Below are positions 1,580 to 56,084 of a stretch of 64,000 nt of DNA, piece after piece. The notes beneath the pieces were generated by a model that made no database searches, was not told where the DNA came from, and was given only the letters and a program-made list of their open reading frames with translations. Position 1 is the first letter of the stretch, and each line of letters starts with the position of its first letter. The stretch lies in contig CASERH010000001.1 of NCBI GenBank assembly GCA_949290295.1, positions 67,969-131,968 on the forward strand, in the 5' to 3' direction. Origin of the DNA: an uncultured Pseudomonadota bacterium. Its GTDB lineage: Bacteria; Pseudomonadota; Alphaproteobacteria; RF32; CAG-239. The position numbers and the translations under genes are program-made.

Positions 1580-2020
1580 ATGGCTCAAAAACCCTTCTGG
1601 AAAACAAAAAAGCTAAGTGAATATACACCTGAAGAATGGGAATCTATTTGCACCCATTGCGGTAGATGTTGCCTCATCAAGCTACAAGATGAGGATTCGA
1701 ATGAGGTTTATGAAACCGATGTCATTTGCCGTTATCACGATTGCCAAACGCACCTCTGCACAGAATACGCCGACCGCTGCAAGCTTGTACCCGCCTGCCT
1801 AAAACTCACTCCGGAAAATATTGGCAAGATTTCTTGGATTCCAGAAACCTGCGCCTACTATACTTTAGCCCGCACCGGAGATCTACCGGCTTGGCATCCT
1901 CTAAAAACAAAGAAACCTCTGCCCGAAGAACTCAAAGCCTCAAGCTCTGTTGTAAGTGAACTTTTGGTACCGGAAGATGAACTTGAAGACCATATTATAG
2001 AGGATGCAGACGATGACTGA
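1580..2020 (+). CDS. ycgN: UPF0260/YcgN-family cysteine-rich protein, copy 1
   Basis: Carries the pattern EW..C..CG.CC..K.......TCAY..L....LP.WHPL characteristic of E. coli YcgN. Confidence 0.7.
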   Translation: MAQKPFWKTKKLSEYTPEEWESICTHCGRCCLIKLQDEDSNEVYETDVICRYHDCQTHLCTEYADRCKLVPACLKLTPENIGKISWIPETCAYYTLARTGDLPAWHPLKTKKPLPEELKASSSVVSELLVPEDELEDHIIEDADDD

Positions 2021-2480
2021 TGATTGGCTGGATTCTCCCTTTGACCCAGAGCAACGCTACGAGCATTTAGAAGATGTTGAACCGGAGTTTTGGAAGAAGA
2101 AAAAGCTGGAAGATATGTCACCAAGAGAGTGGGAGCTTTTATGCGACGGTTGTGGCAAATGCTGCCTAAATAAACTTGAAATTCGCGGCCGCATCAAGTT
2201 CACTCGCACTGTATGCCGATTTTTAGATTGCCAATCTTGCCTCTGCAAAATATATGAACACCGTTTTAAAAAAGTGCCGGATTGTCGCAATATAGACTTG
2301 GCCGCCGTGAGAGAAAAGCCTCGCTGGTTGCCAAAGACTTGCGCCTATTGGCTTTTAGACAACGGCCAAGATTTGCCCGATTGGCACCCCTTAAAAATGT
2401 CTTTACGAAACCGAGAAGTTGTATCAGAAACCGGAGTAAATGACTATGAAGATTACATTGTTGACTGGCCGGACCTCTGA
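2004..2480 (+). CDS. ycgN: UPF0260/YcgN-family cysteine-rich protein, copy 2 (tandem paralog)
   Basis: Same Cys/His pattern as copy 1 (REWELLCDGCGKCCLNKL...KTCAYWLL...LPDWHPL). Overlaps copy 1 by 17 nt. Confidence 0.65.
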   Translation: MQTMTDDWLDSPFDPEQRYEHLEDVEPEFWKKKKLEDMSPREWELLCDGCGKCCLNKLEIRGRIKFTRTVCRFLDCQSCLCKIYEHRFKKVPDCRNIDLAAVREKPRWLPKTCAYWLLDNGQDLPDWHPLKMSLRNREVVSETGVNDYEDYIVDWPDL

Positions 2481-3153
2481 TATTGCAGAAGCTTTAGGGA
2501 TGGAGATAAAGATTATAAAATCTCCCTTAGCCAAACGCCTAACCCTAAGGATTGACGATAAAAATCATCTCCCGGTACTAACCATTCCCAAGTATTGCAC
2601 ATCTCGCAAAGCTATCAACTTTGTGGAAGAGCATCGCGACTGGATTCGCAATATGCTGGCCCGTTTACCCACAGCCGAAAAATTTGGAAACGGAGAAAGC
2701 ATCTCCATAATGGGAGAAAAAGTTATCATCACCCACCACCGCGGCCAAAGAGGAATAGCTCTCAAAGATGGCTTTTTGGTTGTTGGCGGCGAACCGGAAT
2801 TTTTACATCGTCGTGTAAGCGATTTTTTAAAAAAACTTGCCGCCAAAGAGCTGTCAAAACTTTCAATTGCCAAAGCCAAACAACTAGGCAAAACCGTTCA
2901 TCATATAAGCATTAAAGACACCAAATCCCGCTGGGGCAGCTGCTCCAGCAAAAACAATATCAACTATAATTGGCGGATAATTTTGGCTCCCAAACATGTC
3001 ATTGATTATCTCGTTTGCCACGAGGTTTCTCACCTCTTGCACCAAGATCATTCTGCAAACTTTTGGAATTGCGTTGCCACCCTTTGTCCTGATTACCAAG
3101 ATGGACGCCGCTGGTTAAAAGTAAAAGGCAAAGAGCTTTACCGCTACATTTAA
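2440..3153 (+). CDS. YgjP-like (DUF45/M48-related) zinc-dependent hydrolase
   Basis: WGSCS...N..NYNWRIILAP followed by HEVSHLLHQDHS (HExxH). Domain order is typical of YgjP/SprT-like proteins. Confidence 0.6.
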   Translation: MTMKITLLTGRTSDIAEALGMEIKIIKSPLAKRLTLRIDDKNHLPVLTIPKYCTSRKAINFVEEHRDWIRNMLARLPTAEKFGNGESISIMGEKVIITHHRGQRGIALKDGFLVVGGEPEFLHRRVSDFLKKLAAKELSKLSIAKAKQLGKTVHHISIKDTKSRWGSCSSKNNINYNWRIILAPKHVIDYLVCHEVSHLLHQDHSANFWNCVATLCPDYQDGRRWLKVKGKELYRYI

Positions 3154-3973: not shown

Positions 3974-4004
3974 GATCCCGCCGATTTGGCGGGATTTTTT
4001 TATT
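3974..4004. terminator. Bidirectional Rho-independent terminator
   Basis: GATCCCGCC-gattt-GGCGGGAT hairpin flanked by an A-run and a T-run. It sits between convergent genes and overlaps the stop of the minus-strand gene. Confidence 0.7.
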
Positions 4005-5079
4005 TCTGAAACATAACTAAAGAACTTCCTTCTTGTTCTTGAGATTGTTTTAGAGCCTCTATGGCTTGTTCAATCAATTTTTTTGCCGACCGCGCCGGAT
4101 TAGGAAAGACGCTGGCGCCAACACTAACAGTTAGGTCGTGAGTCGTAAAATTATCGCTCACGCCTTCTCTAAGCAAGGCCATAAGTTTTTTTATCTCCAC
4201 ATCCAAATCATACCCGCTCATCAAATCAGGCATCAATATCCAAAAATGATATTTCAGCCCTCTGGCCACGGTATAATTTTTTTTCAAACTCAAAACCAAA
4301 GTGTTGGCAAGTTTTTTGATAACAAATTCTTCCAAATGAAGTTTTCTGAAAGATTCAATATTGTCAACATTAACCCCAACAACGGCAATCAAATCTTTCG
4401 GCAAACGAGAATCCTTATAATTCTCATTGTTAACAGCCATTTGAACCCTGTCTTCAAACAAGAAGAAATTTGGCAAACCTGTCAAATCGTCATATAAATT
4501 ATTGAAAAACGGTTTACTGCTTTTGTTTTGGTGATTTCCCACTAAAATAAAAGAAAAATGCTTAGTATCAGGCAAATAGATGGCCTGGAATTCAACCGGA
4601 ATAACTTTCCCCTTGAGAGAGCGTAATCTAATTTTTTGCTTTTGAGCAGAGGTCAGCATCTCGCCGATACTTGAGGTCATAAGATTCCAATCTTGCTTAT
4701 CAACAAACGAAAGGAAGGGCTCGCCCAAAGAAGACTTCATATCTTTGATGTCCAACATTTGCATTGCCGTAAAGTTAAAATAAACGGCTTTATCATCGCT
4801 GACCATAACAATCGGCCGCTCAGAGCTATTCATAACTAAGTTAACGATATCGTTAAGATTGACATCCAAATCTTGCCAAAAATACTTTTCCTTAATTTTT
4901 TTCTTTTGTTGTTTTGGCAACTCTGTTTGAGGGGGCTGAGCATTAAAATTTTCAAGGTCATTAAGAACAATGCCATACTGATCTGCCTTTTTGAGCAAGG
5001 CCAAATCAGCCTTTGCGGCAGAAACAAACCCTGCATGCCCCTCAAGATTTTCAATATTTAAAGAACTATCTTCACTCAT
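4000..5079 (-). CDS. Signalling protein with a degenerate GGDEF (diguanylate-cyclase-like) domain
   Basis: YDDLTGLPNFFLFEDRV is the GGDEF domain N-terminal signature, but no intact GG(D/E)EF motif is present. The N-terminal half looks like a PAS/sensor domain. Confidence 0.5.
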   Translation of the reverse strand: MSEDSSLNIENLEGHAGFVSAAKADLALLKKADQYGIVLNDLENFNAQPPQTELPKQQKKKIKEKYFWQDLDVNLNDIVNLVMNSSERPIVMVSDDKAVYFNFTAMQMLDIKDMKSSLGEPFLSFVDKQDWNLMTSSIGEMLTSAQKQKIRLRSLKGKVIPVEFQAIYLPDTKHFSFILVGNHQNKSSKPFFNNLYDDLTGLPNFFLFEDRVQMAVNNENYKDSRLPKDLIAVVGVNVDNIESFRKLHLEEFVIKKLANTLVLSLKKNYTVARGLKYHFWILMPDLMSGYDLDVEIKKLMALLREGVSDNFTTHDLTVSVGASVFPNPARSAKKLIEQAIEALKQSQEQEGSSLVMFQK

Positions 5080-5206
5080 CTTATTTATCTGTTTTTTTGT
5101 AGTTTAGAATCTATTTATCAAAAACACAATGCCAAAATCTTTGTATTTTTTTAATAATATTAGAATATACTCCGTTCATCTATGCAAAAAAAGAAAGAAT
5201 TCAACC

Positions 5207-7279
5207 ATGGCGGAAGAAGAAAACACCAAAGAAAATTCAGAAGAGTCTCTTTCTGCGGCGGCAGAAGAAGATGCTGTTTTGGCACCAGCGGAAACTTTAG
5301 ATAAAGATACACAAGAAAAAGCTGTTTCTGACAACACATATTTGGTAAAAGAACGTTTTGAAATTGACTATAGTCATCCTTTGCCGGAATTAAACGCCAA
5401 CGGGGCCAAGGCCTACATGGTCAAAGATAAAATAAATCCACAGCGTGAACTTTTTGCCCTTCTGTGCGACAACAACTTTCCGCCCAGACTTTCCATGTTG
5501 CCCTATTTGAAATCAATAGAACACCCGAATTTGCTAAATCTGGTGGATTACAGTGTTGTAGACTATAAGCCGGAAAAGACAATGAACATGGCATTAATAT
5601 ACAGTCGTCCGACCGGCCCAAAGGTCTCCCAGGCAATCCCAAAAGAAAAACCAAGCTTTGAAAAATTTAAATCCTTGGTACTGTCGTTAGTTTCCGGCTG
5701 TGAAGCTCTGAAAAACTACAATCTAACTCACCGAGCCATTCGCATGGACAACATCTTTTTTAAAGATGAGAAGGGCTCTGAACTCGTGTTAGGGGATTGC
5801 GCAGCATCATTTCCTGCCCTATACCAGCCTAATGCCTATGAAACCCAGGAGAGCCTATTATGCATACCCCAAGGACGCGGGCAAGGAAGCAGCGGTGACG
5901 ATGTTTACTCTGCCGGAGTTGTTTTATTAGGGCTTGCTTTAGGCCACGAAATTGCTCCCAAATGTTCGTGTCCGGAGTTACAGCGTCTAAAACTAAAAAA
6001 AGGTTCTTTGGCAACCCTTTCTGATGGAGAAAAAATTCCCGGTCAAATTATGCCTCTTTTGAAAGGAATGTTAGAAGACAGTATTGAAAGTCGTTGGAAC
6101 AGCTCGCAAATTTACAATTATCTTGACGGAAAGAATCCAACCTTTTCCTCTGAGCCAGGAGATCGCTCCATGAGAGCCTTAAGCATTGGCGGAGAAAAAT
6201 ATTACACGGCCAAATCCGTAGCTTTGGCAATATTGGAAAATCCGGCAGACGGCCTAAGTGTTATTAAAAGCGGCAAACTTTTGGAGTGGATAAAGAACGG
6301 CCTTGAAAACGAAAAACTCCACAATAAAATAGAACGATTAATCAACGCAGAGAAAGAAGGAGAATCAAACAGATTGCTTTTGCCGCAAATCTGCATTTAC
6401 TTAGACTATAGTTTGCCGATCAAGTGTGATACCATGTATGTTTTTCCGAGTGGTCTTCCCAAAGCCATATTCCATAGCTTAAAAACAGGTAGATCTTTGG
6501 AGCCCTTCCACCAAATTTTATCTGGAGATTTAATCAAAATCTGGTACCAAGAGCAACCCTATTTACACGCTCCTGCAAACAGTAATGAATTTAGAGTTTA
6601 TCTAAGCCGCAATGATTATGGTTATGGCATCGACCGTATCATTTATGATTTTGACGATGATTTGCCCTGTACCAGTCCCCTAATTGGCAAAGAGTTTGTA
6701 AACACCCCATCAAAATTATTAAAAGCTCTGGATTCGAACTATTCAGAAAACAAAGAAGACAAGCCATACGACAAAAATATCATAGCCTATCTGCGCAGCA
6801 AGATGGGCAAAAAAATAGATGGCATATTAACCGATATCAACGCCAATCAAGATGCCCTACAAATATCGGCTGTCATGAGATTGTATGCCAATATTCAAAA
6901 CAAAACAGGTCCGGTTCAACTTCTAAACCTGACCAAATGGTTGGTAAAAACTGCCAAGCCGATTATAATGAATTATCATAATACGAAATACCGTAAATAT
7001 TTGGAACAAGAGACCATAAAAATTTCCAAAAGCGGCAAAATTATAGAGCTTTACGAAATTCTTGAAAACGAGGAGGCTCAAAAGAAGGACCGAACGGAAT
7101 ACGCTTCTGTTTTGAAAAAAGTGAACATTTTGGTAACCGAACGCAACCGTATTTTGCAAGGGAGCCCGAAACTAGATGAAGAATCCAGAGAGCTGGCTAT
7201 AAAATTTGGCTCGATTCTTTCAATTTTAACCATGTTGAGTTCATTTATTCTCAGCATTATTTATTGGGTGTTTAAATGA
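5207..7279 (+). CDS. Eukaryotic-like Ser/Thr protein-kinase-fold protein (likely pseudokinase) with a C-terminal TM anchor
   Basis: HRAIRMDNIFF aligns to the HRDLKPENILL catalytic loop, with the catalytic Asp replaced by Ala. GDC replaces DFG. DDVYSAGVVLLGL matches subdomain IX (DxWSxG). The C-terminal FGSILSILTMLSSFILSIIYWVF is hydrophobic. The ORF track starts at 5129, but that N-terminus translates an AT-rich promoter, and MAEEEN at 5207 is more plausible. Confidence 0.55.
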   Translation: MAEEENTKENSEESLSAAAEEDAVLAPAETLDKDTQEKAVSDNTYLVKERFEIDYSHPLPELNANGAKAYMVKDKINPQRELFALLCDNNFPPRLSMLPYLKSIEHPNLLNLVDYSVVDYKPEKTMNMALIYSRPTGPKVSQAIPKEKPSFEKFKSLVLSLVSGCEALKNYNLTHRAIRMDNIFFKDEKGSELVLGDCAASFPALYQPNAYETQESLLCIPQGRGQGSSGDDVYSAGVVLLGLALGHEIAPKCSCPELQRLKLKKGSLATLSDGEKIPGQIMPLLKGMLEDSIESRWNSSQIYNYLDGKNPTFSSEPGDRSMRALSIGGEKYYTAKSVALAILENPADGLSVIKSGKLLEWIKNGLENEKLHNKIERLINAEKEGESNRLLLPQICIYLDYSLPIKCDTMYVFPSGLPKAIFHSLKTGRSLEPFHQILSGDLIKIWYQEQPYLHAPANSNEFRVYLSRNDYGYGIDRIIYDFDDDLPCTSPLIGKEFVNTPSKLLKALDSNYSENKEDKPYDKNIIAYLRSKMGKKIDGILTDINANQDALQISAVMRLYANIQNKTGPVQLLNLTKWLVKTAKPIIMNYHNTKYRKYLEQETIKISKSGKIIELYEILENEEAQKKDRTEYASVLKKVNILVTERNRILQGSPKLDEESRELAIKFGSILSILTMLSSFILSIIYWVFK

Positions 7280-7755
7280 TAAAACCATTAAGAACGCGCC
7301 AACCGGCTAAAGCGAAAATAAAGTTCAATCTTTTGCAAAAGATTCTACTTCTTTTGGGATTGGTTATTTTGGTAATAACGGCCTTACCGGCAGTTGTAAT
7401 CTTAATCATCGGACTGCTGCCGACAATCACAATTATCTTGATAGATTCAAAAAATACCAGCAAACTGACAATGGTAGGTTGTTTTAATTTGGCCGGAGTT
7501 TTTGTTTGCCTGATGAATATTTTTAATCAATTTAACCTTAATCATGCCATTACAATTCTTGGCAATGTTTTCAATATAATCATCATGCTGGGAGCCGCGG
7601 CTTTAGGAATGGTTCTATATTATGAGTTGCCAAATCTTTTTCTGTTCATCTCCAAGGCATCAGCCCAGAGACGCCTTCGCAACATTGACAACAAGCTCGA
7701 AAAAATTGCCGATGAGTGGGGGCAAGAATGTATTGCTGAAGTAAATCAAAAATAA
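7276..7755 (+). CDS. Polytopic membrane protein, translationally coupled to the kinase-like gene
   Basis: ATGA start/stop overlap with the upstream gene. At least four TM helices. No family recognised. Confidence 0.4.
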   Translation: MIKPLRTRQPAKAKIKFNLLQKILLLLGLVILVITALPAVVILIIGLLPTITIILIDSKNTSKLTMVGCFNLAGVFVCLMNIFNQFNLNHAITILGNVFNIIIMLGAAALGMVLYYELPNLFLFISKASAQRRLRNIDNKLEKIADEWGQECIAEVNQK

Positions 7756-7758: not shown

Positions 7759-7789
7759 CAAAGCCGCGTTTTAAAACACGGCTTTTTCA
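7759..7789 (+). terminator. Rho-independent terminator
   Basis: AAGCCGCG-ttttaaaa-CACGGCTT hairpin followed by TTTTT. Confidence 0.55.
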
Positions 7790-7790: not shown

Positions 7791-8669
7791 TTAAGATTTC
7801 ATGCCTTCAATTGTTTTGGCAATTTTTTTAATTGAATTCAATTCTATTTGCCGCACACGCTCTTTAGAAATATTATAAAGTTTGCTCAAATCATCAAGTG
7901 TCACAGCTTTCTCGAATAATCTGCGCTTAAATAAGATATCTCTTTCGCGTTTATTTAGGCACACAAGAGCCTTATTAAAAAGTTCACGGCGGTATTTCAT
8001 CGTTTCGGCATAAGCCAAAACCTCTTCTTGATTGGGCTTCGTATCAGCAATAAAATCCATCCATTCGCTACCACTATCAGAAGAAGCATCTATTTGAGTA
8101 TTAAGAGAGCCATCATGAGATTTAAGACGCATATTCATATCCGTCACATCTTGCACGCTGACATCCAAAGATTCGGCAATGCCATTTAACACCTTTGGAG
8201 AAAGCTCTCTGTCATCGGTAACATTGAGCTTATTTTTTATTTTTCGTAAATTAAAAAACAACTTTTTCTGTGCCGCGGTCGTCCCTATTTTAACCAACGA
8301 CCACGAGTTTAAGATATATTTTTGGATAGAAGCTTTAATCCACCACAAGGCATAAGTTGAAAATCTAAACCCCTTATCCGGTTCAAATTTTTCAATAGCA
8401 TAAAGAAGTCCGATGTTTCCCTCAGAAATCATCTCTGCTGCAGATAGGCCATAACCTCTGTATTTGGCAACAACTTTTACCACCAAGCGCAAATGAGAGG
8501 TGACCAAAACTTTAGCTATTTCCGGATTTTTTGTTTTCTGATATTGAACAGCCAGGTTGTATTCTTCATCCTGAGCCAAGATAGGATATTGCCTGATTTT
8601 TTGCAAATATCTGACCATGTTAAACTCTGGAGAAAAGTCCGCTCCACCAAGATTTTGGACATCATCCAT
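7791..8669 (-). CDS. rpoH: RNA polymerase sigma-32 heat-shock factor RpoH
   Basis: Sigma-70 family regions 2 and 4. The RpoH box QKKLFFNLRK is present. Confidence 0.85.
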   Translation of the reverse strand: MDDVQNLGGADFSPEFNMVRYLQKIRQYPILAQDEEYNLAVQYQKTKNPEIAKVLVTSHLRLVVKVVAKYRGYGLSAAEMISEGNIGLLYAIEKFEPDKGFRFSTYALWWIKASIQKYILNSWSLVKIGTTAAQKKLFFNLRKIKNKLNVTDDRELSPKVLNGIAESLDVSVQDVTDMNMRLKSHDGSLNTQIDASSDSGSEWMDFIADTKPNQEEVLAYAETMKYRRELFNKALVCLNKRERDILFKRRLFEKAVTLDDLSKLYNISKERVRQIELNSIKKIAKTIEGMKS

Positions 8670-9868: not shown

Positions 9869-10144
9869 ATGGACAAACTCAAATTAATTAAAACTGTTGT
9901 TGTTATTTTAACTTTTTTATTGGTTTTTGGCATATTAACAGCACTGGGAAGTATTTACAAGAAAGTATCAGCACCGGCAAAAGAGATAGAAAACATTGAC
10001 CTCAAACAACCAACCGGCAGCAGCATAGAAGATTTTAAGGTAGAAAACGGCAAGCTCTATCTCCTAGTTAAGTATGGTGGCGAAAACGACCGTATTTTAA
10101 TCATAGAGCCCGGCAAAGCTCCTGCGGAAATAAAGATTAATTAA
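9869..10144 (+). CDS. Small single-pass membrane protein; first gene of the accessory operon
   Basis: N-terminal TM (VVVILTFLLVFGILTALG) and a beta-rich C-terminus. No family recognised. Confidence 0.35.
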   Translation: MDKLKLIKTVVVILTFLLVFGILTALGSIYKKVSAPAKEIENIDLKQPTGSSIEDFKVENGKLYLLVKYGGENDRILIIEPGKAPAEIKIN

Positions 10145-10156
10145 AAGGAGGATGAA

Positions 10157-11005
10157 ATGGCTGAAACAGATTCTCAAGATGAATTTGACCGTCTTTTAGA
10201 TGACTTCATCTCTCAGCAACTGGCTGATGCGGAAGACAACCTCACAGACCTCGCTGAGCTGAAAGAAACAGGCAAACCAGCGCCTCAATATCCGGAAGAT
10301 GAAGCCGAAACTATTCAAAAGCTCTACCAAGAAGAGCGCCAGCTATACGACGCCTACCACAATTTTCGCAACGCTATAACAGCTGTTGCCAAAAATGCCA
10401 ACATGGAACCGCCGCATTTTGAATTTGGTGCCAGATATATCTACCCACGCTTTCGCCCTTCCAGAACCAAACAACTCAACCAAGATATCTTCAGTGGTTG
10501 GGAGCTCTTGGCCATGGCGCAACCGGTCAGACTGTCATCTCTGCCGGCCAACGCCTCGGATGAGCAAATTTTAAATTTTGCCGAAAAAACAACCGATGAG
10601 AACTTGCAATGCGCTCTAATTTCTTATGTCGAAATCTTAATAGAGCTGGATGGTTGCGAAATTGCCTACAATATGCGCAAAGCCAAAGCCGAAAAGCGCA
10701 AAATAGAAAAAGAGATTTTTGAGGAACACCAACGCCGCAAAGAGCGGATGAAAAAGTATATTGAAGCCATCGAGGCACAGCATTTTCCGATAGATGCGGA
10801 AAGATTGGTCAACAACTTTTTCAAAAGCGTACGCAAAGATCCCGAAGGCGCACAAAAGATATTAGAAACGAATCCGGCCACCTTTGCGCCCATCCAGGTA
10901 GAAAAGATTCCGCCACGCTTTTTTGGGATGATAAAGCCCAAACCGGAAGACGGAATCAGAGTAAATAAAGAAATCGGAAAATTTTTGAAGAATTTGAAGG
11001 TCTAA
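10157..11005 (+). CDS. Hypothetical acidic cytoplasmic protein of 282 aa
   Basis: 13-nt spacing after the previous gene. Acidic N-terminus (DEFDRLLDDF) and a K/E-rich coiled region. No motif recognised. Confidence 0.35.
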   Translation: MAETDSQDEFDRLLDDFISQQLADAEDNLTDLAELKETGKPAPQYPEDEAETIQKLYQEERQLYDAYHNFRNAITAVAKNANMEPPHFEFGARYIYPRFRPSRTKQLNQDIFSGWELLAMAQPVRLSSLPANASDEQILNFAEKTTDENLQCALISYVEILIELDGCEIAYNMRKAKAEKRKIEKEIFEEHQRRKERMKKYIEAIEAQHFPIDAERLVNNFFKSVRKDPEGAQKILETNPATFAPIQVEKIPPRFFGMIKPKPEDGIRVNKEIGKFLKNLKV

Positions 11006-11083: not shown

Positions 11084-12775
11084 ATGGCAAAAGAAACCTC
11101 CTCTCCACGCAAAGAAGCACAAGCAGCAGCCAACAGCGGTAGAAAAAGCGGAGAAGAAAACACAAGAACAACAAACAGAGCCCCAACGGAGGCAACCAGA
11201 CCTGTCACACCAACATCAGGGGCGGGAAGCACGCCTACCGGTAGTGGAGAAAGCGGCACAAGTAGCAGCCCCACCCCGCAGCAAAATGATGGAAATTCTG
11301 GGCAAAAACCCGTCACGGTTAATCAAGCAACTCCTCAACCCGATAAATCAACAGACCGAGAGTTTACCGCTGAAGATCTCTCCGATTATGTTGCCTCACT
11401 TGCCAAAAAAGACCCTAAAGAATTATCGGTTGAAGAATTAAATGTCCTCAAAGAAAACACCTCGGATCCTGAAGAAAGACAAAAATACGAGGATATGATA
11501 AACCAACGCAATCTTCCTGGAGACGGAAAGGCACCTGAAGCAGGAAAGATTGAAAAGACTGATGACCCTGATGATCCCAAAGAAGATGACGACAAATTTG
11601 ATATTCAACAAGGCGATTTCATTGAATTCTTAATGAAAGATGTAGTGTTGGCCGCAGCGGCTTGGGGAGGCAAGAAGGTTTCAGGCCAAGTTGGTCTTTG
11701 GACATACCGAGGTCTTTCTTGGGCATATCACAAAGTAGATGATAAACTCTATACTCCAGCTAAAAAAGAACTTGCGGAAGCCTGGGATAACCTAAAGAAA
11801 AACACCAAAGAGGCCTTCAGAACCGTAGAACAATACCAAGTAAAAGATACCTTAACTGGCGACAACAGCACCGTACAATTCACTCATGAAGTTTTAAAAG
11901 AGCACAACAAGGTTATTGACGATGCCTTAAAAAGTCCCAAAAGAATTGAAGCCTTTGGTCGTTTTGCCGCAGCCGTGGTCAATGGTAAGTTAAAGGAGGG
12001 AACTTACAATCAAAATGGCCATGCTGTTTGGTTTGATAAAGAAACCCGCACCACTATTCCGCTTGAAGGCAAAACAATGCAGGATCTCATTAAAATGGTG
12101 CAGGAAACATCTCAAGCCATAGACGCCTCAGACAGACCAGTCGGAGAAAAAACCGCCCTAAAAGACCTGGCAGCCAAAGACTTTTCGGTTATAGTCGGAA
12201 CCTACACCCTGCTTGAAGGCCAAAAAAACATCTTTATGTCCAACATGGCCACCGCCACACTTCTGCAAATGAAGGCGGAAAATAAAGATTATCAATACTC
12301 AAAAGAAGAGCTTGAGGCCATGAAAAATCGTGCCGCCATAACCTTTTTCACCGAGCTGAGAAAAATAAGAAACGGTCAAAGCCAGTTCAAAACGGTTGAG
12401 GAATTTTTGGAAGCCAGCGGCAAAGCTGTCCAAACAGCCTACAACAATGTTGAAAAAGGACGCTATGATGAAAAAGGCAAAATGCCGCCAGCTAATGCAG
12501 AGTTAGTCCTGCTCAACAACCTCAACACATTGCAACGCCAAGAAAATCCCCAGGACATGTTAGCAGAGGCCATGCTGTTTAGCGAGACAATGAGAAAGCT
12601 ACAAGAGCGCCACAATAACGTGATTGCCCAAGAGGAGGCCGCTCGCAATGCACGAACTGGTAGAGGTAGAGAAGACAGAAGAACAAACGGAGATAGAGGA
12701 AACAATGGCGGTAGAGAAACCGGTGGCGATAGAGGAACCGGCGGTGGCAGAAGAAACAGCGGAGGAAGAGATTAG
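11084..12775 (+). CDS. Hypothetical 563-aa protein with a disordered S/T/P/G-rich N-terminus and a C-terminal RGG/GGR repeat tail
   Basis: First 100 aa are low-complexity (TPTSGAGSTPTGSGESGTSSSPTP). C-terminus is RTGRGREDRRTNGDRGNNGGRETGGDRGTGGGRRNSGGRD. The middle is a globular helical domain. Confidence 0.4.
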   Translation: MAKETSSPRKEAQAAANSGRKSGEENTRTTNRAPTEATRPVTPTSGAGSTPTGSGESGTSSSPTPQQNDGNSGQKPVTVNQATPQPDKSTDREFTAEDLSDYVASLAKKDPKELSVEELNVLKENTSDPEERQKYEDMINQRNLPGDGKAPEAGKIEKTDDPDDPKEDDDKFDIQQGDFIEFLMKDVVLAAAAWGGKKVSGQVGLWTYRGLSWAYHKVDDKLYTPAKKELAEAWDNLKKNTKEAFRTVEQYQVKDTLTGDNSTVQFTHEVLKEHNKVIDDALKSPKRIEAFGRFAAAVVNGKLKEGTYNQNGHAVWFDKETRTTIPLEGKTMQDLIKMVQETSQAIDASDRPVGEKTALKDLAAKDFSVIVGTYTLLEGQKNIFMSNMATATLLQMKAENKDYQYSKEELEAMKNRAAITFFTELRKIRNGQSQFKTVEEFLEASGKAVQTAYNNVEKGRYDEKGKMPPANAELVLLNNLNTLQRQENPQDMLAEAMLFSETMRKLQERHNNVIAQEEAARNARTGRGREDRRTNGDRGNNGGRETGGDRGTGGGRRNSGGRD

Positions 12776-13263
12776 TGAAAAAAATCTACAAAATCTTTAG
12801 AACAAGCTTAATTGGAATACTCTGGACATACCTTTTCCTTATTGCCGCCAATTATACGATGTATCAGTTATGGAGTTTCAATTTCATGTCTGCCCGCAGT
12901 TGGCAAACAATTTCTCGTTTTTGGGAAAGCGGCGGAGTTATAAACACAACAGCAGACTACGTCTTTTTGCTAATGCTTTTTGCTCTGCCTTTTTTATGGA
13001 TTTGGGGCTGGATAAAAGCGCTAAAAATAGATTATTTGAGCATTTTTCTCTATCCAATTAATGCTTATAACCGCTACATCATCAACAAATATGGTCACGA
13101 TTCCTCAAGAATAGTTTTGAAGAATCTAAAATCCAGCCAAAAAATGATAGAAGAAATAAAAAGTCAGCTGGAATCCATAAAACCGGCAAAGACCAAAGAA
13201 GTTGGCAACATTCGTGCCGAGGTACAAAAACAACTAGAAAAATTAAATACCCCAAAACACTAA
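12775..13263 (+). CDS. Polytopic membrane protein, paralog A
   Basis: GTG start overlapping the previous stop (TAGTG). Its N-terminal 90 aa align to the N-terminus of the next gene (I..W..LFL...W.F....W....W.SG.VI....F.L....W..GW.AL). Confidence 0.45.
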   Translation: MKKIYKIFRTSLIGILWTYLFLIAANYTMYQLWSFNFMSARSWQTISRFWESGGVINTTADYVFLLMLFALPFLWIWGWIKALKIDYLSIFLYPINAYNRYIINKYGHDSSRIVLKNLKSSQKMIEEIKSQLESIKPAKTKEVGNIRAEVQKQLEKLNTPKH

Positions 13264-13322
13264 ACAGTTATTAACCAATTTTGTGCTAGAATACAAAATA
13301 AAAACGTTGGAGAGCCGAGTAT

Positions 13323-14585
13323 TTGAAACCGCTTTTAATTTTAATACGAATAGCCTTTGTAGGTATCTTCTGGAGCATTTTGTTTCTAGAAGGTATTCGT
13401 GTTATTATGCTGACCAACTGGCATTTTGATATTTTGCGCATAGATCACTGGCTGTATGCCTGGAATTTATGGCTTTCTGGCTGGGTCATTGATGACCCTA
13501 AAGAATGGGCCTTTATCCTGATAATCTTGACTTTTGTTCCTGTTTGGCTGACGGGCTGGACCGCCTTAAGCCTAATTCACTGGGGTAAAATTATAGCAAA
13601 CGTACTTGAGCTGCCAATCAAATTGTTCAATAAGTTATTTGAAAAACAAGTCAAAAAAATTGCCAATACAGCCAGTGTCAAGGTTGTAAAGAAAAAAAGG
13701 TCCTACAAAGAGATTCGCCCGCGCAGCATTCGTCCACCTCTGGAAGAAAGCGCCTACGCCCTGCCGGCAGACAAAAAGGCGGCTCTTTCCGGTATAGCTC
13801 CCAAGAGCATCCCCATTTCCAAGCCCGCCAATAACATCACCAAAGAGGTTGATGCGCCTGTTGAGTTTAGCCATTCTCTGTTTAAGTTCGATGACGACGA
13901 CAACAGCGGATTTGACTTTGATTTATTTGATGAAACTCCCAAAGAAGAGCCTGCAAAACAAGAGCCAACCCCAACAAAAGAATCCGCAAAACAAGAGAAC
14001 AAAGCTCCAAACACAAAAGCACAAAGGAATGACAATAAGGGCAAAGGTGGTCAAAAGAACATCTCCTCCCCCGCACCTCATGGCAGTACCAATTCAACCT
14101 TAGAGGTCCTGAAACAGAAAGGATATGAAGTCATCACGGGAGCCACCATAAAGAGCACGCTTATAGATTTTATAGGTGTTTCGGGCACTCAGATTTGCCT
14201 TTGCTTAAACGATAAAGAACCGGGAGATTGGTTGGCGGATGAAGAGCGTTTCAATGATGAAGAACCTCTGTGGTTTTCAGAAAGTTCGCACAGAATTTCT
14301 CCTGTCAGAAAAATAGATATTGCGCGTTTAATTTTAACGGATAAGCTAACCGAAGCCGAGATGTCTTTCAAGGTAGAAGCTTATGTTATTGAACAAATCG
14401 GCAATATAATCAACGCGGAGGATATGTTTGATATTTGGGATAATATGAACATTCATGTTACCAGAATTGACAGAGGAACCCCCAAAGAAATAAAGTTATT
14501 TAATAAAACACTGGAAGAAGCCGAAGGTAAAATTGATAAGGCTGATTTTGATAAAGTTAGAAAACTAATTCGCAGTATTGCATAA
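13323..14585 (+). CDS. Membrane protein, paralog B, with a low-complexity linker and a C-terminal cytoplasmic domain; candidate T4CP partner
   Basis: TTG start 13 nt after a GGAGAG RBS. TM N-domain homologous to paralog A. K/E/P-rich linker and D/F-rich acidic patch (FKFDDDDNSGFDFDLFDE). It sits immediately upstream of the T4CP. Confidence 0.45.
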   Translation: MKPLLILIRIAFVGIFWSILFLEGIRVIMLTNWHFDILRIDHWLYAWNLWLSGWVIDDPKEWAFILIILTFVPVWLTGWTALSLIHWGKIIANVLELPIKLFNKLFEKQVKKIANTASVKVVKKKRSYKEIRPRSIRPPLEESAYALPADKKAALSGIAPKSIPISKPANNITKEVDAPVEFSHSLFKFDDDDNSGFDFDLFDETPKEEPAKQEPTPTKESAKQENKAPNTKAQRNDNKGKGGQKNISSPAPHGSTNSTLEVLKQKGYEVITGATIKSTLIDFIGVSGTQICLCLNDKEPGDWLADEERFNDEEPLWFSESSHRISPVRKIDIARLILTDKLTEAEMSFKVEAYVIEQIGNIINAEDMFDIWDNMNIHVTRIDRGTPKEIKLFNKTLEEAEGKIDKADFDKVRKLIRSIA

Positions 14586-14598
14586 AAAAGAGGAATAA

Positions 14599-16866
14599 AT
14601 GGCAGTAGAGAAAAAAGGAGAAGAATGGGAAGAATATAACAGTGCCGTCCGCTGGATGGTAATAACGGTTATTATCTCCACTCTCATAACCATATTTTTA
14701 GCTTTGGTTTCAATGCCGTTAGGATACCTTATCGGCACGGGTATTTCAAAAGAAAGCTTAGGGGATGTTTCCCGCTTTTTTGACCTTGTATTCAATAAAC
14801 CTGGCTATCTTTATTCTCGCTATTGGAACTGGATAAAACAAGTTTTTAATTACCACGGTCCTTTTTCTGTAAGCCTGTGGATTCCTATTTTGCCCTTTAT
14901 CAGCCTCCCGGTTGGTTTAATTTTTGGGGTCATTACTAATCCATACAGATTCCAATCAAACATCCACGGCTCTGCCCGCTTGGCTACGGAAAAAGATATC
15001 AAAAAGATGGAACTGTTGGGATTCGATGGCTTTTGCCAAGTGGTTGGCAAATTCAACAATAAGCTTCTACTGTTGAAAGAAACGCTTTCCACGCTTTGTT
15101 GCGCACCTCCGGGAACCGGTAAAACAGCAGGAGTTGTTGTTCCGACAATTTTTCATTCACCGACCTTAAGCATCATCGTAAACGACCCCAAGCCGGAATT
15201 GTGTTTTCAAACATCCGGTGCCAGAGCCAAGGTTGGTCCTGTTTTTATCATCAACTGGGGTATGGAAGATAATCCTGCGGAAGGCATATACTACCCAAGT
15301 TGGAATCCTCTTTCTCCCGGTGCGGTACCGGCGCCTGGACCTTCCAGAGATATGTATGTAGATTCCATGTGCAAGGTTTTGGTAGAAGACCCCAAAGGAG
15401 GAGCAGACCCTCACTGGTCGACAACTGGTCGTGCGGCCCTAACCGGCTTTATCCACTTTATAGTTTCCAAGTGCGAAAAAGCAAGAGCTAATGACTACTT
15501 TATCGGCCGAGTTTATGAAGGCAAGTTAGACGAAGAAGATAAAAAGGTTCTGGAAGGCTACTATTTGGAAATGAATGATCCTGCAGCCGCCAGAGCTCTT
15601 CAAAATTTAAGAAACAATACCCTAAACATAGACAACTATTTACCGATTGGTACCTGGGCTTTGTTGCCGGAAAAATGGATTGGGCGAGAAGCCTGCATAG
15701 CCATGATTTTGGAGTGGATTACAGAGGCACAAATTAAACAATCTCAGGATATCAAACGCCGTATGGATGAAGGCGACCAAATGGCGGCCATGGCAGACCC
15801 CATGAGAGATTTGTTGGAGGAAGCTATTGAAGAGGCTCGTAAATTTGGCTACACGCAACGCTGTATCGTTGAGTTGAGCCAGTTAAGCTCTATGCCGGAT
15901 AAAGAAAGAGGCTCTGTTCTTTCAACCGCTTTTGCCGGCATCAACATCTTCAAAAACTCCGCCGTGGTAGCCCGTACAAGCTTCAGCGATTTGGCCTTCA
16001 AAGACTTGCGAGGACTAAAAGACCCCATTACCGGGGAATTTAAGCCTATTTCCGTTTATCTTTCGGTAAACCAAGTAGATGCCAGAGCTTTGAGTGTAAT
16101 TTCAGGAACATTCATTGACCTGATGTCCTCTTATCTGATAGCAAATCCACCCAAATTTAAGAATCCGACCGACGGTCAGATGGGTCCCTACTCCTGCCTA
16201 TTTGTACTAGACGAGTTTCCAACCATGCCCAAACTACGAGCCGTTATCGACGGGCCGGCAGTTGGACGTGGCCAAAAAGTATCATACTTGCTGATTGGCC
16301 AAGATTTGGGCCAAATATCCGGTAAATATGGTAAAGATGACCTCGAAACGGTTATCTCCACAACAGCCTGTAAGGTTATCTTGTCCCAAAACAACGAGCA
16401 AACAGCCCAACGTTTCTCAAAAATGATTGGCAACAAAACTGTCCAAACAACGTCTTACTCAAAGAACGAAGGTGGTTTTGGAAAGGGTGTAAACCCCTTC
16501 TCTAAAAACGTAAGCTACCAGTTACAAGGTGTTTCGGTTATATCTACAACACAACTATTAAGCTTGCCAATGCTAAAACAAGTTGTTTTGATGCAAAGTT
16601 ACATCGACAGGCCGATCATGGCAGATTCTCCTCGTTGGTACTTGGATAAAAAGATGAAGGCTCTGCGCAACCTTCCACCGGCACCAAATGTCCCAGACTG
16701 GATTGTTGCTCAAAGAGAAGACATTAATGATGATATGTTGGCCAAACTGGGTATAGACTATGATCCAAACGAAGATTTTGATGATTCCGAGTTTGCAGAA
16801 GATGAGGAGTATGATGAATCTTCTGAAGAAGCAGAAGACACCTCTACCGAGCAAGCCCCTCAATAG
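14599..16866 (+). CDS. Type IV secretion coupling protein (T4CP), VirD4/TraG/DotL family ATPase
   Basis: Two N-terminal TM helices. HGSARLATEKDIKKMELL matches the VirD4 HGSARWA box. Walker A is CCAPPGTGKTAGVVVPTI. FVLDEFPTMPKL is the Walker B box FLLDEF, and LLIGQDLGQI is the T4CP IGQ/Q motif. C-terminal acidic tail is DDSEFAEDEEYDESSEEAEDTSTEQ. Confidence 0.8.
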   Translation: MAVEKKGEEWEEYNSAVRWMVITVIISTLITIFLALVSMPLGYLIGTGISKESLGDVSRFFDLVFNKPGYLYSRYWNWIKQVFNYHGPFSVSLWIPILPFISLPVGLIFGVITNPYRFQSNIHGSARLATEKDIKKMELLGFDGFCQVVGKFNNKLLLLKETLSTLCCAPPGTGKTAGVVVPTIFHSPTLSIIVNDPKPELCFQTSGARAKVGPVFIINWGMEDNPAEGIYYPSWNPLSPGAVPAPGPSRDMYVDSMCKVLVEDPKGGADPHWSTTGRAALTGFIHFIVSKCEKARANDYFIGRVYEGKLDEEDKKVLEGYYLEMNDPAAARALQNLRNNTLNIDNYLPIGTWALLPEKWIGREACIAMILEWITEAQIKQSQDIKRRMDEGDQMAAMADPMRDLLEEAIEEARKFGYTQRCIVELSQLSSMPDKERGSVLSTAFAGINIFKNSAVVARTSFSDLAFKDLRGLKDPITGEFKPISVYLSVNQVDARALSVISGTFIDLMSSYLIANPPKFKNPTDGQMGPYSCLFVLDEFPTMPKLRAVIDGPAVGRGQKVSYLLIGQDLGQISGKYGKDDLETVISTTACKVILSQNNEQTAQRFSKMIGNKTVQTTSYSKNEGGFGKGVNPFSKNVSYQLQGVSVISTTQLLSLPMLKQVVLMQSYIDRPIMADSPRWYLDKKMKALRNLPPAPNVPDWIVAQREDINDDMLAKLGIDYDPNEDFDDSEFAEDEEYDESSEEAEDTSTEQAPQ

Positions 16867-25696: not shown

Positions 25697-26289
25697 AAAT
25701 TAGCTTCCAATCCTCTAATAATGTTAATAAGCTCAACCTTGAGCAAATTTTTAGGCTTATCGGTATTAATCACCACATCAGCCAACATTTTTTTATGTTC
25801 ATTACTCATTTGCACGTTATTTATCTTGTCAAAATCCTCGGCAGAAACATTATCTCTTTTCATGACACGTTGCTTTTGGATATTATAATCAACATCTGCC
25901 ACCAAAATCAAATCACAATATTTATCCCATCCCATTTCAAACAATAAAGCCACATCAATAAAAAATATATCAGAATAACAGGCGTTTTCTCTAATGACTT
26001 TTTTTAAATTTTCACGCAAAAAAGGATGAATAAGACTTTCTAAGAGTTTGAGTTTATCTTTATCATTAAAGACCAAATTGCGTAAAGCTCTTTTATCAGC
26101 CACTCCATTATGAACAGTTCCGGGAAAATGTTTTTCCAGTGTTTTTAAAAAATCCCGAGAAAAGTAGAGCCTCCTCACCCAACCGTCAATATCAAAAACG
26201 GTATACCCCAAAGAATTGGCAATTTTAGCCAAAGTAGTCTTTCCGCATCCGATAGAACCGGTAATAGCCACAAGCAACATAAAAAACAT
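25693..26289 (-). CDS. coaE: Dephospho-CoA kinase
   Basis: P-loop ITGSIGCGKTT. The coaE-dnaQ arrangement is conserved in alphaproteobacteria. Confidence 0.8.
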   Translation of the reverse strand: MFFMLLVAITGSIGCGKTTLAKIANSLGYTVFDIDGWVRRLYFSRDFLKTLEKHFPGTVHNGVADKRALRNLVFNDKDKLKLLESLIHPFLRENLKKVIRENACYSDIFFIDVALLFEMGWDKYCDLILVADVDYNIQKQRVMKRDNVSAEDFDKINNVQMSNEHKKMLADVVINTDKPKNLLKVELINIIRGLEANL

Positions 26290-26764
26290 CCTTTTATCAG
26301 AAGGTTAAACAAGTTATAAACAGAAGTCTCATTTTCTGTGCATAACTCACCCCTACCCTACCTTTTATAACTTTTTATCACCGTAAAGTAAAATTTAATC
26401 TCACAACTTACACACAGGCTTAAATTTGATTCACAAGATGTGGATAACAAAACTTACTAACAACCAACAAAAAATAAGCTTCACAACATTAGTCAATTGA
26501 AAAGACTAAAATCTTAATAAATTATTAACAAATTTCCTCAACTTTATTAACAAAGAGTTAAAATCTGAATAACTCAAAGATAAAAAAATAATCAACAACT
26601 CTCACAGGGATTCACAAACAACAAAAACATTTTAAAAATATATTATTGGCCCTGCGGGGCTGTTCATAAAAGTGCCTTATAATATTAATTGACAGAAGGT
26701 AAAAAAACTCTTATAAAAAAATCACAAATATCCCTCCTATTTAATCATTTCCAAAAAGGTTTCC
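26290..26764 (+). promoter_or_regulatory. Long AT-rich rho leader/promoter region with C/A-rich (T)TCACAA repeats and one consensus DnaA box
   Basis: TGTGGATAA at 26440-26448, which is the reverse complement of TTATCCACA. At least five copies of TCACAA/TCACAG. The 475-nt untranslated stretch upstream of rho is typical of rut-containing autoregulatory leaders. Confidence 0.4.
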
Positions 26765-28018
26765 ATGAATTTAAAAGATTTAAAACAAAAGTCTCCGACT
26801 GAGTTATTAACTCAGGCAGAGGATCTGGGCATAGAAGATGCATCTTCCATGCGTGTACAAGACTTGATGTTTGCTATTTTGAAAAAAGTAGCAGGCGAAG
26901 ATCAAACCATCAGCGGCGAAGGAACCATAGAGGTTATGCAAGATGGCTTTGGTTTTTTACGTTCAGCTCAATCAAATTACCTGGCCGGCCCGGATGATAT
27001 ATATGTATCTCCCGCCCAAGTAAAGAAATTTGGTTTAAGAACCGGAGACACGGTAGAAGGAGAGATAAGAGCGCCGAAAGACAATGAGCGCTACTTTGCT
27101 CTGGTAAAAGTAAATAAGATTAATTTTGAAGACCCCGAAAAATCAAAATTGAGAGTAAATTTCGATAACTTAACACCTTTGTACCCGACGGAAAAACTCA
27201 ATTTTGACATTATATGCGGAGAGAAAGATTACACCACAAGAGTCATTGACTTGATTGCTCCGCAGGGAAAAGGACAGAGAGGCTTGATTGTGGCTCCTCC
27301 TCGCACAGGTAAAACTGTAATGTTGCAAAACATTGCGCATGCCATAGCCACCAATCATCCTGAATGCTATTTAATGGTGTTGCTGATAGATGAGCGACCG
27401 GAAGAGGTAACTGATATGACCCGCTCTGTTAAAGGAGAGGTTATATCATCGACATTTGATGAGCCGGCCAGCCGCCATGTTCAGGTTGCAGAAATGGTGA
27501 TAGAAAAAGCCAAACGTCTGGTAGAAACCAAAAAAGACGTTGTTATTTTGCTGGATTCTATTACTCGTTTAGGCAGAGCCTATAATACCGTGATTCCTTC
27601 ATCAGGAAAGGTTTTAACCGGCGGTGTAGATGCCAATGCTCTGCAAAGACCAAAACGCCTGCTTGGTGCTGCCAGAAATGTTGAAGAAGGCGGGTCCTTA
27701 ACCATCATTGCCACGGCGTTGATAGATACCGGTTCTCGCATGGATGAGGTCATTTTTGAAGAATTTAAGGGAACGGGTAACTCAGAAATTATTCTTGATA
27801 GAAAACTAACAGATAAACGTTTATTCCCGACCATAGATATCACACGTTCCGGCACCAGAAAAGAAGAACTTTTGGTAGATAAAGAACGCTTAACCAAGAT
27901 GTGGGTTTTGCGCCGTGTCTTGATGCAAATGGGCATGACGGACGGCATGGAGTTCTTGCTTGATAAATTAAGGGTGAGCAAGGACAATAATGACTTCTTT
28001 GCCAATATGAATTCCTAA
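26765..28018 (+). CDS. rho: Transcription termination factor Rho
   Basis: N-terminal OB/RNA-binding domain. Walker [10 protein letters not shown] and R loops. Confidence 0.9.
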
Positions 28019-28021
28019 AAT

Positions 28022-28058
28022 AAAAACCCCTTTGAATAAAATCAAAGGGGTTTTTATT
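28022..28058. terminator. Bidirectional Rho-independent terminator
   Basis: AAACCCCTTT-gaataaaatc-AAAGGGGTTT followed by a T-run, between convergent genes. Confidence 0.7.
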
Positions 28059-28584
28059 ATAGTACGTAAGAAGCATCCCAAACTATAGAAATTAAGATCA
28101 TCATTACTAGCAAAACAACAAAGAATGTTCCGGACCAGCCATTGCAAATTGAGTCCTTATCCATTCCTATAATTTCTCCTTCATCAGTGATTGTTCCGCT
28201 CCAATAAACAGCAACATCATATTCTTTAAACCCTAAGAAATAGCTGATGGGCGGAGCCAACTTTTGAATAAGTATCATCACACAGCCGGCCAACAAGAAC
28301 CAATAGATACTCTTAAAAGCCGAAAGGATGAAAAGAGCAGCGGCAAACAAACCCCACATAGTTCTCAATAAGGCAGACTGAATAGGAACTCTTCCTCTTT
28401 TAAGATTAAAGAAGAAATAAACTCCCCAGAGCAAGCCGGTAATTTTGATAGCCAGATGTTTGGGAGACACAAGGCCGACAATGGTTGCAATTGCAAACAA
28501 GATAACAAAAGCAATCAACAAATAATAAGATTTTCTTTTCATAATGATAAGAATTATAGGGTTTTGATAGCTATATAGATACAA
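28057..28584 (-). CDS. Polytopic membrane protein of 175 aa
   Basis: Five to six TM helices. No family. Confidence 0.4.
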   Translation of the reverse strand: MYLYSYQNPIILIIMKRKSYYLLIAFVILFAIATIVGLVSPKHLAIKITGLLWGVYFFFNLKRGRVPIQSALLRTMWGLFAAALFILSAFKSIYWFLLAGCVMILIQKLAPPISYFLGFKEYDVAVYWSGTITDEGEIIGMDKDSICNGWSGTFFVVLLVMMILISIVWDASYVL

Positions 28585-29265: not shown

Positions 29266-29444
29266 ATATCAACTTTCGGTTTAAAAAAAAGTGAGTCCGT
29301 TAAAAGCCCGCAGAAAAGAATTTCAACCAGTTTATGATGAATTTATTAAGAAAGATTGAAAAACCTCTCCAGAGTCAAAAAAACGGCTTTTTGCTCTTGT
29401 CAGGGAGAAATAATGATTTTATAAACACAAAAGAGAGGTAAATT

Positions 29445-47061: not shown

Positions 47062-47156
47062 CAAAAAGTGGAGAGCAAGCGACCTCAACCGGATTCGTTA
47101 CGGCTGCTTCCTTCCGGACCTGACCGGGTTGGCGAAAGGTCAACCCGCCGCTCTCC
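47062..47156 (-). ncRNA. ffs: Signal recognition particle RNA (4.5S RNA, ffs)
   Basis: The minus-strand sequence contains GGUCAGGUCCGGAAGGAAGCAGCC, the conserved domain IV. The terminal helix is 5'-GGAGAGCGG...CGCUUGCUCUCC-3'. It is immediately upstream of dnaX, the conserved ffs-dnaX-ybaB-recR arrangement. Confidence 0.85.
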
Positions 47157-47204
47157 TTTGGTATAGTTAGCAGATTGACGTTAATTTTCAAGTAAAATTT
47201 AGCT

Positions 47205-55892: not shown

Positions 55893-55968
55893 TGGTGGAG
55901 GTAAGGAGGATCGAACTCCTGACCTAATGATTGCGAACCATTCGCTCTCCCAACTGAGCTATACCCCC
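55893..55968 (-). tRNA. tRNA-Ala (anticodon CGC), CCA encoded
   Basis: Cloverleaf GGGGGUA...UACCUCC with G3:U70. Anticodon loop is UUCGCAA, T-arm GGTTCGATCC. Confidence 0.85.
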
Positions 55969-56008
55969 GTTAGAAACAAAGCCCACTTTTTTAGTGGGCT
56001 TTTGGAAT

Positions 56009-56084
<76 letters not shown>

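Follow-up and report, generated by a model that had tools for sequence, protein, structure and literature searches.

Pseudokinases are defined by sequence as proteins with a kinase fold that are without at least one of the β3 lysine, the aspartate of the HRD motif, and the aspartate of the DFG motif (PMC12599244). Those of bacteria are almost unstudied experimentally. Seven bacterial families, whose functions are unknown, were distinguished in a 2025 atlas and review (ActPs1–3, GLW, CP1, DYD, and DLHK; O'Boyle et al., PMC12599244), and YukC/EssB, the membrane pseudokinases of the type VIIb secretion system (T7SSb), act as scaffolds (PMC12599244). Membrane-anchored bacterial pseudokinases are therefore already known, and membrane anchoring by itself is ordinary. 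Here we analysed a predicted pseudokinase gene (5207..7279, + strand) and the gene of its small membrane partner (7276..7755, + strand), which lie in a stretch of 64,000 nucleotides (hereafter, the window) from an uncultured alphaproteobacterium (GenBank assembly GCA_949290295.1, contig CASERH010000001.1, positions 67,969 to 131,968). As judged from conserved residues, gene order, and predicted topology, the two genes represent a new and large alphaproteobacterial family of tail-anchored pseudokinases whose C-terminal domain is uncharacterised and whose small membrane partner is obligate.

Pfam, hhalign, and Foldseek located a Hanks-type protein-kinase-like domain, catalytically degenerate, at residues ~44–310 of the pseudokinase (5336..6136, + strand). 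The Pfam Pkinase model (PF00069) matched residues 100–304 of the window protein with an expect value (E) of 1.2e-6, but the score of 28.5 bits did not reach the gathering threshold of 31.7 bits. The same model matched 20 of 27 diverse family members at E ≤ 0.01, the best of them at E 2.7e-11. The kinase region of the PADLOC MkoA model matched the window protein at E 1.5e-11, and phmmer against the PDB sequences yielded only weak matches to CDK6 and GSK3. When a profile of 84 family members was compared with PknB of Mycobacterium tuberculosis using hhalign, the probability was 96.4% (E 1.1e-9). In that alignment, HRAI, RMDN, the YET-E segment, and ESRW of the pseudokinase were paired with HRDV, KPAN, the APE region, and ENRY of PknB, respectively, and DVYSAGVVL of subdomain IX was aligned to DVYSLGCVL. 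An AlphaFold2 model of the full-length pseudokinase, built with an alignment of family members, had a mean predicted local distance difference test score (pLDDT) of 85.8 and a predicted template modelling score (pTM) of 0.80. Foldseek with this model found at least 1,999 PDB matches at E ≤ 0.001 (best E 6.5e-10). All 50 matches listed were protein kinases, including WNK, PAK1, CDPK, and PknB, and their template modelling scores (TM-scores), normalised to the target, were up to 0.76. These results show that residues ~44–310 have a protein kinase-like fold and are not a set of chance motif matches.

The conservation of catalytic residues was counted in an alignment of 189 close and 166 distant family members (355 in all). 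The catalytic loop of the window protein reads HRAIRMDN (residues 175–182, 5729..5752, + strand), in which the HRD aspartate is replaced by alanine while Arg-179 and Asn-182 are kept. Position 177, that of the HRD aspartate, is occupied by Ala, Ser, Asn, or Gly across the family, and by Asp in only two of the 355 members. At the β3 lysine, FALLC replaces VAIK in the window protein, and the position is Ile, Val, or Leu throughout the alignment, apart from a few members with Ala, Phe, Met, or a gap. A glycine-rich loop (GxGxxG) was not found: the β1–β2 loop reads PELNANGAKAY, and no glycine is conserved there in the broad family. In total, two of the three residues of the triad (β3 Lys, HRD Asp, and DFG Asp) are lost in ~99% of the members.

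Other parts of the cleft are retained. At the place of DFG stands GDC (residues 196–198, 5792..5800, + strand), in which the acidic residue is kept; position 197 is Asp in all 189 near members and Asp or Glu in 161 of the 166 distant ones. Asn-182 is kept in 352 of the 355 members, Gly-196 in 351, and Asp-232 of the subdomain IX motif DVYSAGVVL (residues 232–240, 5900..5926, + strand) in 354. The near-invariant positions of the whole alignment are H175, N182, G196, the acidic residue at 197, E212, D232, and R296. Thus, the catalytic-loop Asn and the equivalent of the metal-binding DFG Asp (D197, an equivalence that rests on spacing and alignment) are both retained. By the sequence definition given above, the protein is a predicted pseudokinase, and the loss of triad residues is conserved family-wide. 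The pattern indicates that loss of the β3 Lys and of the catalytic base preceded the diversification of the family, whereas the fold has persisted, and with it some of the cleft. An earlier note on this DNA had recognised the three motifs HRAIRMDN, GDC, and DVYSAGVVL and had taken them for a kinase fold with a dead catalytic loop (HRA for HRD), that is, a pseudokinase; the motifs lie where it placed them, and fold comparison and alignment agree with it, adding the absence of the β3 Lys and the glycine-rich loop.

To see how selection acts on the locus, the ratio of nonsynonymous to synonymous substitution rates (dN/dS) was calculated against the closest relative (L001). The kinase-like domain gave 0.038, the C-terminal domain 0.015, and the partner 0.022; these values are rough because the synonymous rate exceeded 1 in this comparison. 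Purifying selection is strong on each of the three, indicating a gene that is functional rather than decaying.

The protein shares with PknB-type kinases a homologous bilobal fold (Foldseek TM-scores of 0.70–0.74 to the PknB entries 6i2p and 4eqm) and a kinase domain that is N-terminal and cytoplasmic. Unlike them, it is without the β3 Lys, the glycine-rich loop, and the HRD Asp, and it has no extracytoplasmic sensor domain, only two residues following the transmembrane helix. A family-specific cytoplasmic domain of 350 residues lies between the fold and the anchor, and the gene is obligately paired with that of a small membrane partner. HER3- and JAK JH2-type pseudokinases have HRN or HGN catalytic loops, keep the β3 Lys, and bind adenosine triphosphate. 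The window family likewise combines a substituted catalytic Asp with a retained DFG acid and retained His and Asn in the loop, and some distant members read HGN or HRN in the catalytic loop. In contrast to HER3 and JAK JH2, however, the family is without the β3 Lys and the glycine-rich loop, and the evolutionary link is the common fold only.

Judged by the published motifs and descriptions, the window family matches none of the seven atlas families. GLW is the nearest by description, having in common a proteobacterial distribution, a hydrophobic residue at β3, and a C-terminal transmembrane region (PMC12599244). In GLW members, the GLW motif replaces HRD, 100% are without the DFG Asp, and β3 reads LLLL/W, whereas the window family keeps H-R/G-(A/S/N/G)-I-R-x-x-N, Asp or Glu at DFG, and FAL(I/V/L)C at β3, a comparison made by published motifs (PMC12599244; bioRxiv 10.1101/2025.01.12.632604). 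The other families come from Actinobacteria or from cyanobacteria and proteobacteria, and DYD and DLHK retain the HRD Asp (PMC12599244, Table 1). Unlike ActPs1–3, CP1, DYD, and DLHK as described, the window family is alphaproteobacterial, has lost the HRD Asp, and has kept the catalytic-loop Asn. The best functional analogy is YukC/EssB, a membrane-anchored cytoplasmic pseudokinase that scaffolds a membrane complex. YukC/EssB, however, has an extracellular domain after its transmembrane helix and is encoded in T7SSb clusters of Firmicutes, whereas the window operon contains no secretion genes, its pseudokinase has no extracytoplasmic domain, and its neighbours are housekeeping genes. A literature search found no description of the window family, of an alphaproteobacterial Hanks-type pseudokinase, or of an Azospirillum kinase beside rpoH or purA.

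The C-terminal extension that follows the kinase fold spans residues ~310–690. Most of it is a predominantly helical cytoplasmic domain (residues ~320–660, ~350 residues; 6164..7186, + strand), delimited by profile and conservation, which is the best-conserved part of the pseudokinase. Its invariant residues in 27 diverse members are W361, P404, W446, G472, G474, R477, Y480, C488, S490, D522, Q564, and D628. Neither a Pfam match nor a PDB sequence match was found for this domain, and Foldseek gave best E values of 1.2 against the PDB and 0.9 against BFVD. The pTM of the full-length model fits a kinase fold and a C-terminal domain that are fixed relative to each other. At the other end, an acidic N-terminal tail (residues 1–43, 5207..5335, + strand) is predicted to be disordered from its pLDDT, which is below 50 for residues 1–39 of the AlphaFold2 model, and from its variable length, ~20 to ~130 residues across family alignments. 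Its dN/dS is 0.15–0.6, compared with ~0.02–0.04 for the rest of the pseudokinase.

The extension ends in a predicted transmembrane tail anchor at residues ~667–688 (7205..7270, + strand), rich in Ser, Thr, and small residues and followed by two residues. The only segment of the pseudokinase above the hydropathy threshold lies at residues 663–690 of 690 (peak 2.13), the AlphaFold2 model has a continuous helix at 654–689, and the C-terminus is hydrophobic in all aligned family members. Since this single hydrophobic segment is at the extreme C-terminus, the protein is predicted to be tail-anchored, with one transmembrane helix in the last ~30 residues, no other transmembrane segment or signal, and essentially no extracytoplasmic part.

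The first open reading frame (ORF) spans 5129..7279 (+ strand) and encodes 716 residues from its most upstream ATG or 690 residues from the ATG at 5207. Homologues of the pseudokinase open with MAEEE, a start that matches the ATG at 5207, and make no use of the one upstream at 5129; 5207 is therefore the right start, giving a product of 690 residues, and the gene was assigned from the ORF list and 232 full-length homologues of 660–716 residues. Its stop codon overlaps the start codon of the partner gene in an ATGA at 7276–7279. The partner gene, recognised from the ORF list, hydropathy, and synteny, encodes a membrane protein of 159 residues. A terminator scan found a G+C-rich hairpin with an 11-pair stem at 7760..7785 (AAAGCCGCGTTTTAAAACACGGCTTTTT), between the partner gene and the convergent rpoH (7791–8669, − strand), which begins just past it. 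This hairpin is probably a bidirectional terminator that ends the operon. Upstream, a GGDEF-domain gene is divergent (4000–5079, − strand). The ATGA overlap, the hairpin before convergent rpoH, and the divergent GGDEF gene delimit a discrete operon of two translationally coupled genes. The earlier note had likewise begun the gene at 5207, given it a C-terminal extension ending in a transmembrane helix, and had it co-transcribed, through the ATGA, with a gene for a protein of four transmembrane helices; all of this agrees with our analysis, co-transcription being further supported by the terminator and by the overlaps in related loci described below, and the partner's topology being a prediction.

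The partner has a basic N-terminus, a hydrophobic stretch of 37 residues broken by a near-invariant Pro-38, two further hydrophobic segments, and a basic C-terminus that forms an amphipathic helix carrying an EWG motif. The Pro-broken stretch is probably a helical hairpin. From hydropathy and the positive-inside rule, the partner probably has ~4 transmembrane helices with both termini in the cytoplasm. Its invariant residues are G46, P49, N71, G74, A108, G111, and W148. Searches revealed no Pfam or PDB relative, and the partner profile gave nothing better than E 0.05 against the PDB. An identity as EMC3/TMCO1 (Oxa1-type insertase, PF01956) was rejected as a chance match, because only 1 of 33 homologues was matched (E 2.7e-5, below the cut-off) and the window partner itself was not.

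The size of the family was gauged with a profile built from the C-terminal domain alone; 1.84 billion representative proteins were searched with it, and matches were counted as clusters at 50% identity. At least 1,178 clusters were found at E ≤ 1e-3, of which 981 were at E ≤ 1e-10. Nearly all are 650–790 residues long with the domain at the same position, and the whole architecture is therefore that of a large family. The few annotated members are named 'protein kinase family protein' (Alphaproteobacteria bacterium) or 'putative serine/threonine protein kinase' (Rhodospirillales bacterium). A scan of GTDB with gut-clade-specific peptide patterns detected relatives in 98 species; 80 loci were retrieved, all from metagenome-assembled genomes (MAGs) of uncultured gut or rumen Alphaproteobacteria. 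Two further word-indexed searches for homologues contributed little, their candidates being few or mostly from the gut clade. In these loci, the order GGDEF gene (−), pseudokinase (+), partner (+) is kept in 78–79 of 80, rpoH is convergent directly downstream in 58 of 80, and rpoH with rluD is downstream in ~60 of 80.

Outside the gut clade, five distant members (21–30% identity) on long contigs are preceded by hisZ–purA and followed by a partner homologue of 152–172 residues; blastp of the window partner against these five homologues gave E values of 1e-8 to 7e-19. In all six distant loci whose flanks were inspected, the gene is directly preceded by same-strand hisZ–purA at a distance of 58–151 nucleotides, and in a soil alphaproteobacterium (L081, 24% identity) rpoH is convergent directly downstream. 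A tblastn search of PLSDB showed that five cultured Azospirillum species carry the gene on chromids, under the annotation 'serine/threonine protein kinase'. In Azospirillum thermophilum, the order is hisZ, purA, pseudokinase, a gene for a hypothetical protein of 155 residues, rpoH (−), and rluD (−), and the motifs of the pseudokinase are HGAIRPTN and LGEC. Azospirillum lipoferum 4B keeps the pair, with neither purA nor rpoH within 6 kb.

A partner homologue stands directly downstream of the pseudokinase gene in 86 of 87 loci, with a gap of −4 nucleotides in 58 and −1 in 17 (75 of 86 together), and of at most 30 nucleotides in 85. The flanks vary: the upstream gene is the GGDEF gene in the gut clade or hisZ–purA elsewhere, and downstream are found rpoH, tad genes, or a short-chain dehydrogenase/reductase gene. 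The sole constant association of the neighbourhood is the pseudokinase–partner pair itself. We rejected the GGDEF neighbour as a universal third component, since it is adjacent in the gut clade only and hisZ–purA occupies the upstream place in distant members. This neighbour (359 residues) has a PAS-like region at its N-terminus and a GGDEF domain that is degenerate: GLKYHF replaces the GGDEF signature, and no RxxD I-site is evident. A degenerate GLKYxF was seen in nearly all 79 GGDEF neighbours compared (the window and 78 gut-clade loci), so that in 78 of 80 gut-clade loci two 'dead enzymes' stand back to back. At one distant locus (L083, 8771–14118), a cluster of tad/flp pilus genes (TadE, TadE, TadG, Flp, prepilin peptidase, RcpC/CpaB, and secretin) comes directly after the pair; this adjacency was seen at no other locus and is probably coincidental.

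The pair looks like an old core module of Rhodospirillales-type Alphaproteobacteria that has been passed on vertically, and not like a clade-specific effector. The earlier note had remarked that such proteins in intracellular bacteria are often host-interaction factors or regulators of the divisome or of polarity, and the host-interaction framing did not survive the phylogenetic distribution. The closest relatives are MAGs from the gut and rumen lumen, and the pair also occurs in soil Rhodospirillales and in free-living, cultured Azospirillum, beside hisZ, purA, rpoH, and rluD; a host-interaction effector is therefore unlikely.

On balance, we think it likely that the protein is a non-catalytic, tail-anchored pseudokinase scaffold that forms a membrane complex with its partner. 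The products of the operon would form a stoichiometric complex in the inner membrane, in which the kinase fold and the 350-residue helical domain would pack together as a single cytoplasmic module. The tail anchor, rich in small residues (Ser, Thr, Ala, and Gly), would pack on the transmembrane helices of the partner that carry the invariant G46, P49, N71, G74, A108, and G111, and the cytoplasmic C-terminal helix of the partner, with its invariant W148, would dock on the cytoplasmic module. The kinase-like domain would work non-catalytically, as a membrane-tethered scaffold or a ligand-gated switch, and the retained cleft residues Arg-179, Asn-182, and Asp/Glu-197 may hold a ligand or peptide with no phosphate transfer.

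Several points weigh against this scaffold reading. The inactivity of the kinase-like domain is read from its sequence, and the contact between pseudokinase and partner is deduced from gene order and overlap. In a mirror-tree analysis, the partial r was 0.45 for the kinase and the partner versus 0.43 for the kinase and rluD, which is nothing beyond shared phylogeny. Moreover, Asn-182, the acid at the DFG position, and the basic residue at the catalytic-loop Lys position (Arg-179) are almost invariant, which suggests that the cleft still binds something and argues against a pure scaffold. Such conserved cleft residues would fit the binding of a nucleotide or metal, or a non-canonical reaction.

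The last possibility would make the protein an active enzyme with non-canonical chemistry, either an atypical kinase, as WNK is, or a transferase, as in AMPylation by SelO or glutamylation by SidJ, acting on a membrane-proximal substrate that could be the partner; we regard this as unlikely. Some bacterial 'pseudokinases' do have alternative catalytic functions (PMC12599244). Metal-binding Asn-182 and an acidic residue that is always or nearly always present at the DFG position would suit such an enzyme, as would Arg-179 at the place of the catalytic-loop Lys of Ser/Thr kinases and the nearly invariant R94, Q207, and R224–G225 (GRGxG) near the substrate-binding region. However, the β3 Lys position is hydrophobic across the family, the catalytic base is missing in 353 of 355 members, and there is neither a glycine-rich loop nor a conserved αC Glu. 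No substitute Lys of the N-lobe is conserved in the broad family either, K48 being Lys in 45 of the 166 distant members. SelO retains the β3 Lys, which the window family does not have.

A broader proposal, which we consider quite unlikely, is that the pair is an ancient, unrecognised alphaproteobacterial membrane signalling module, with a cleft that binds a nucleotide or second messenger and a C-terminal domain of a new fold. Such a module would control a core process, for example by sequestration and release of RpoH or by coupling purine status, through purA, to envelope stress. A role of the pair in regulating the heat-shock sigma factor RpoH while tethered to the membrane, or in sensing purine nucleotides, is very unlikely. 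For this speak the convergent rpoH that adjoins the pair in the window, in the 58 gut-clade loci, in L081, and in A. thermophilum, and the same-strand hisZ–purA of the six distant loci. In contrast, rpoH is not downstream in L083, L085, L086, and 22 gut-clade loci, purA is missing from the whole window, and A. lipoferum 4B has neither gene nearby. In addition, rpoH is convergent and so not co-transcribed with the pair, and adjacency to housekeeping genes across related orders may be mere inherited gene order.

Roles of the pair in host interaction, as an effector, or in anti-phage defence, as a kinase, are scarcely credible: besides MkoA, the window protein matched mad6 (E 1.3e-4), PD-T4-6 (E 4e-4), and NCBIfam MADS6 (E 3e-6), but these matches are confined to the generic kinase region (residues ~101–317) of much longer models (26 bits against a cut-off of 460 bits for NF047741; 41 bits at positions 62–285 of 1,112 for MkoA), no helicase, nuclease, or methylase partner accompanies the GGDEF, rpoH, and rluD neighbours, the gene is single-copy, under strong purifying selection, syntenic with housekeeping genes, and vertical across orders including free-living Azospirillum, and the tail anchor would retain the protein in the producer's own membrane. 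An identity as Mokosh MkoA, MADS mad6/MADS6, or PD-T4-6 was accordingly rejected, only the kinase segment being matched and no system partners being present.

Several other features of the window were recorded. At 9869–11005 (+ strand), beside rluD, lie a DUF6476 ORF (91 residues) and an ORF of 282 residues with no Pfam match; both are conserved in ~61 of the 80 related loci, and a DUF6476-like ORF stands beside rluD in the distant Rhodospirillales locus L084. They are followed at 11084–16866 (+ strand) by same-strand ORFs of 563, 162, 420, and 755 residues. The ORF of 755 residues, the last, is a VirD4/TraG-type coupling protein of type IV secretion (PF02534, E 1.9e-55), that of 563 residues weakly matches the protelomerase domain TelK_N (E 4e-4), and the other two have no Pfam match. 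This segment may be a conjugative or type IV secretion element. The AT skew is unusually high (0.18–0.29) at 10–14 kb. At ~26000–30000, the GC skew changes from about −0.3 (25.5–26.5 kb) to about +0.2 (after 29.5 kb), giving a cumulative-skew minimum, and the GC content is the lowest of the window (0.33–0.36). A perfect DnaA box (TTATCCACA) lies at 26439–26447 (− strand) and a one-mismatch box at 26337, and the number of DnaA boxes over the whole window is not above chance. These features may mark an origin of replication, or they may simply reflect a change of gene strand. At 1580–2480 (+ strand), two slightly overlapping ORFs (146 and 158 residues) each carry a CxxCxxCC putative metal-chelating domain (PF03692), which looks like a tandem duplication, with a DnaB helicase gene upstream (102–1286) and a YgjP-like metallopeptidase gene downstream (2440–3153). 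RNA features are two tandem tRNA-Ala genes with anticodons CGC and GGC (55893–56084, − strand), a small signal recognition particle RNA (47064–47159, − strand), and an rpsB leader element (RF01815; 60176–60281, + strand) at 43.9 bits, just above the threshold.

The findings on the pseudokinase and its partner overturn no established idea. They indicate that the database label 'serine/threonine protein kinase' is probably misleading for this family. Its presence both in cultured, genetically tractable Azospirillum and in abundant uncultured gut Alphaproteobacteria makes the family more useful, and it provides a testable entry point to the non-catalytic function of kinase folds at the bacterial membrane.

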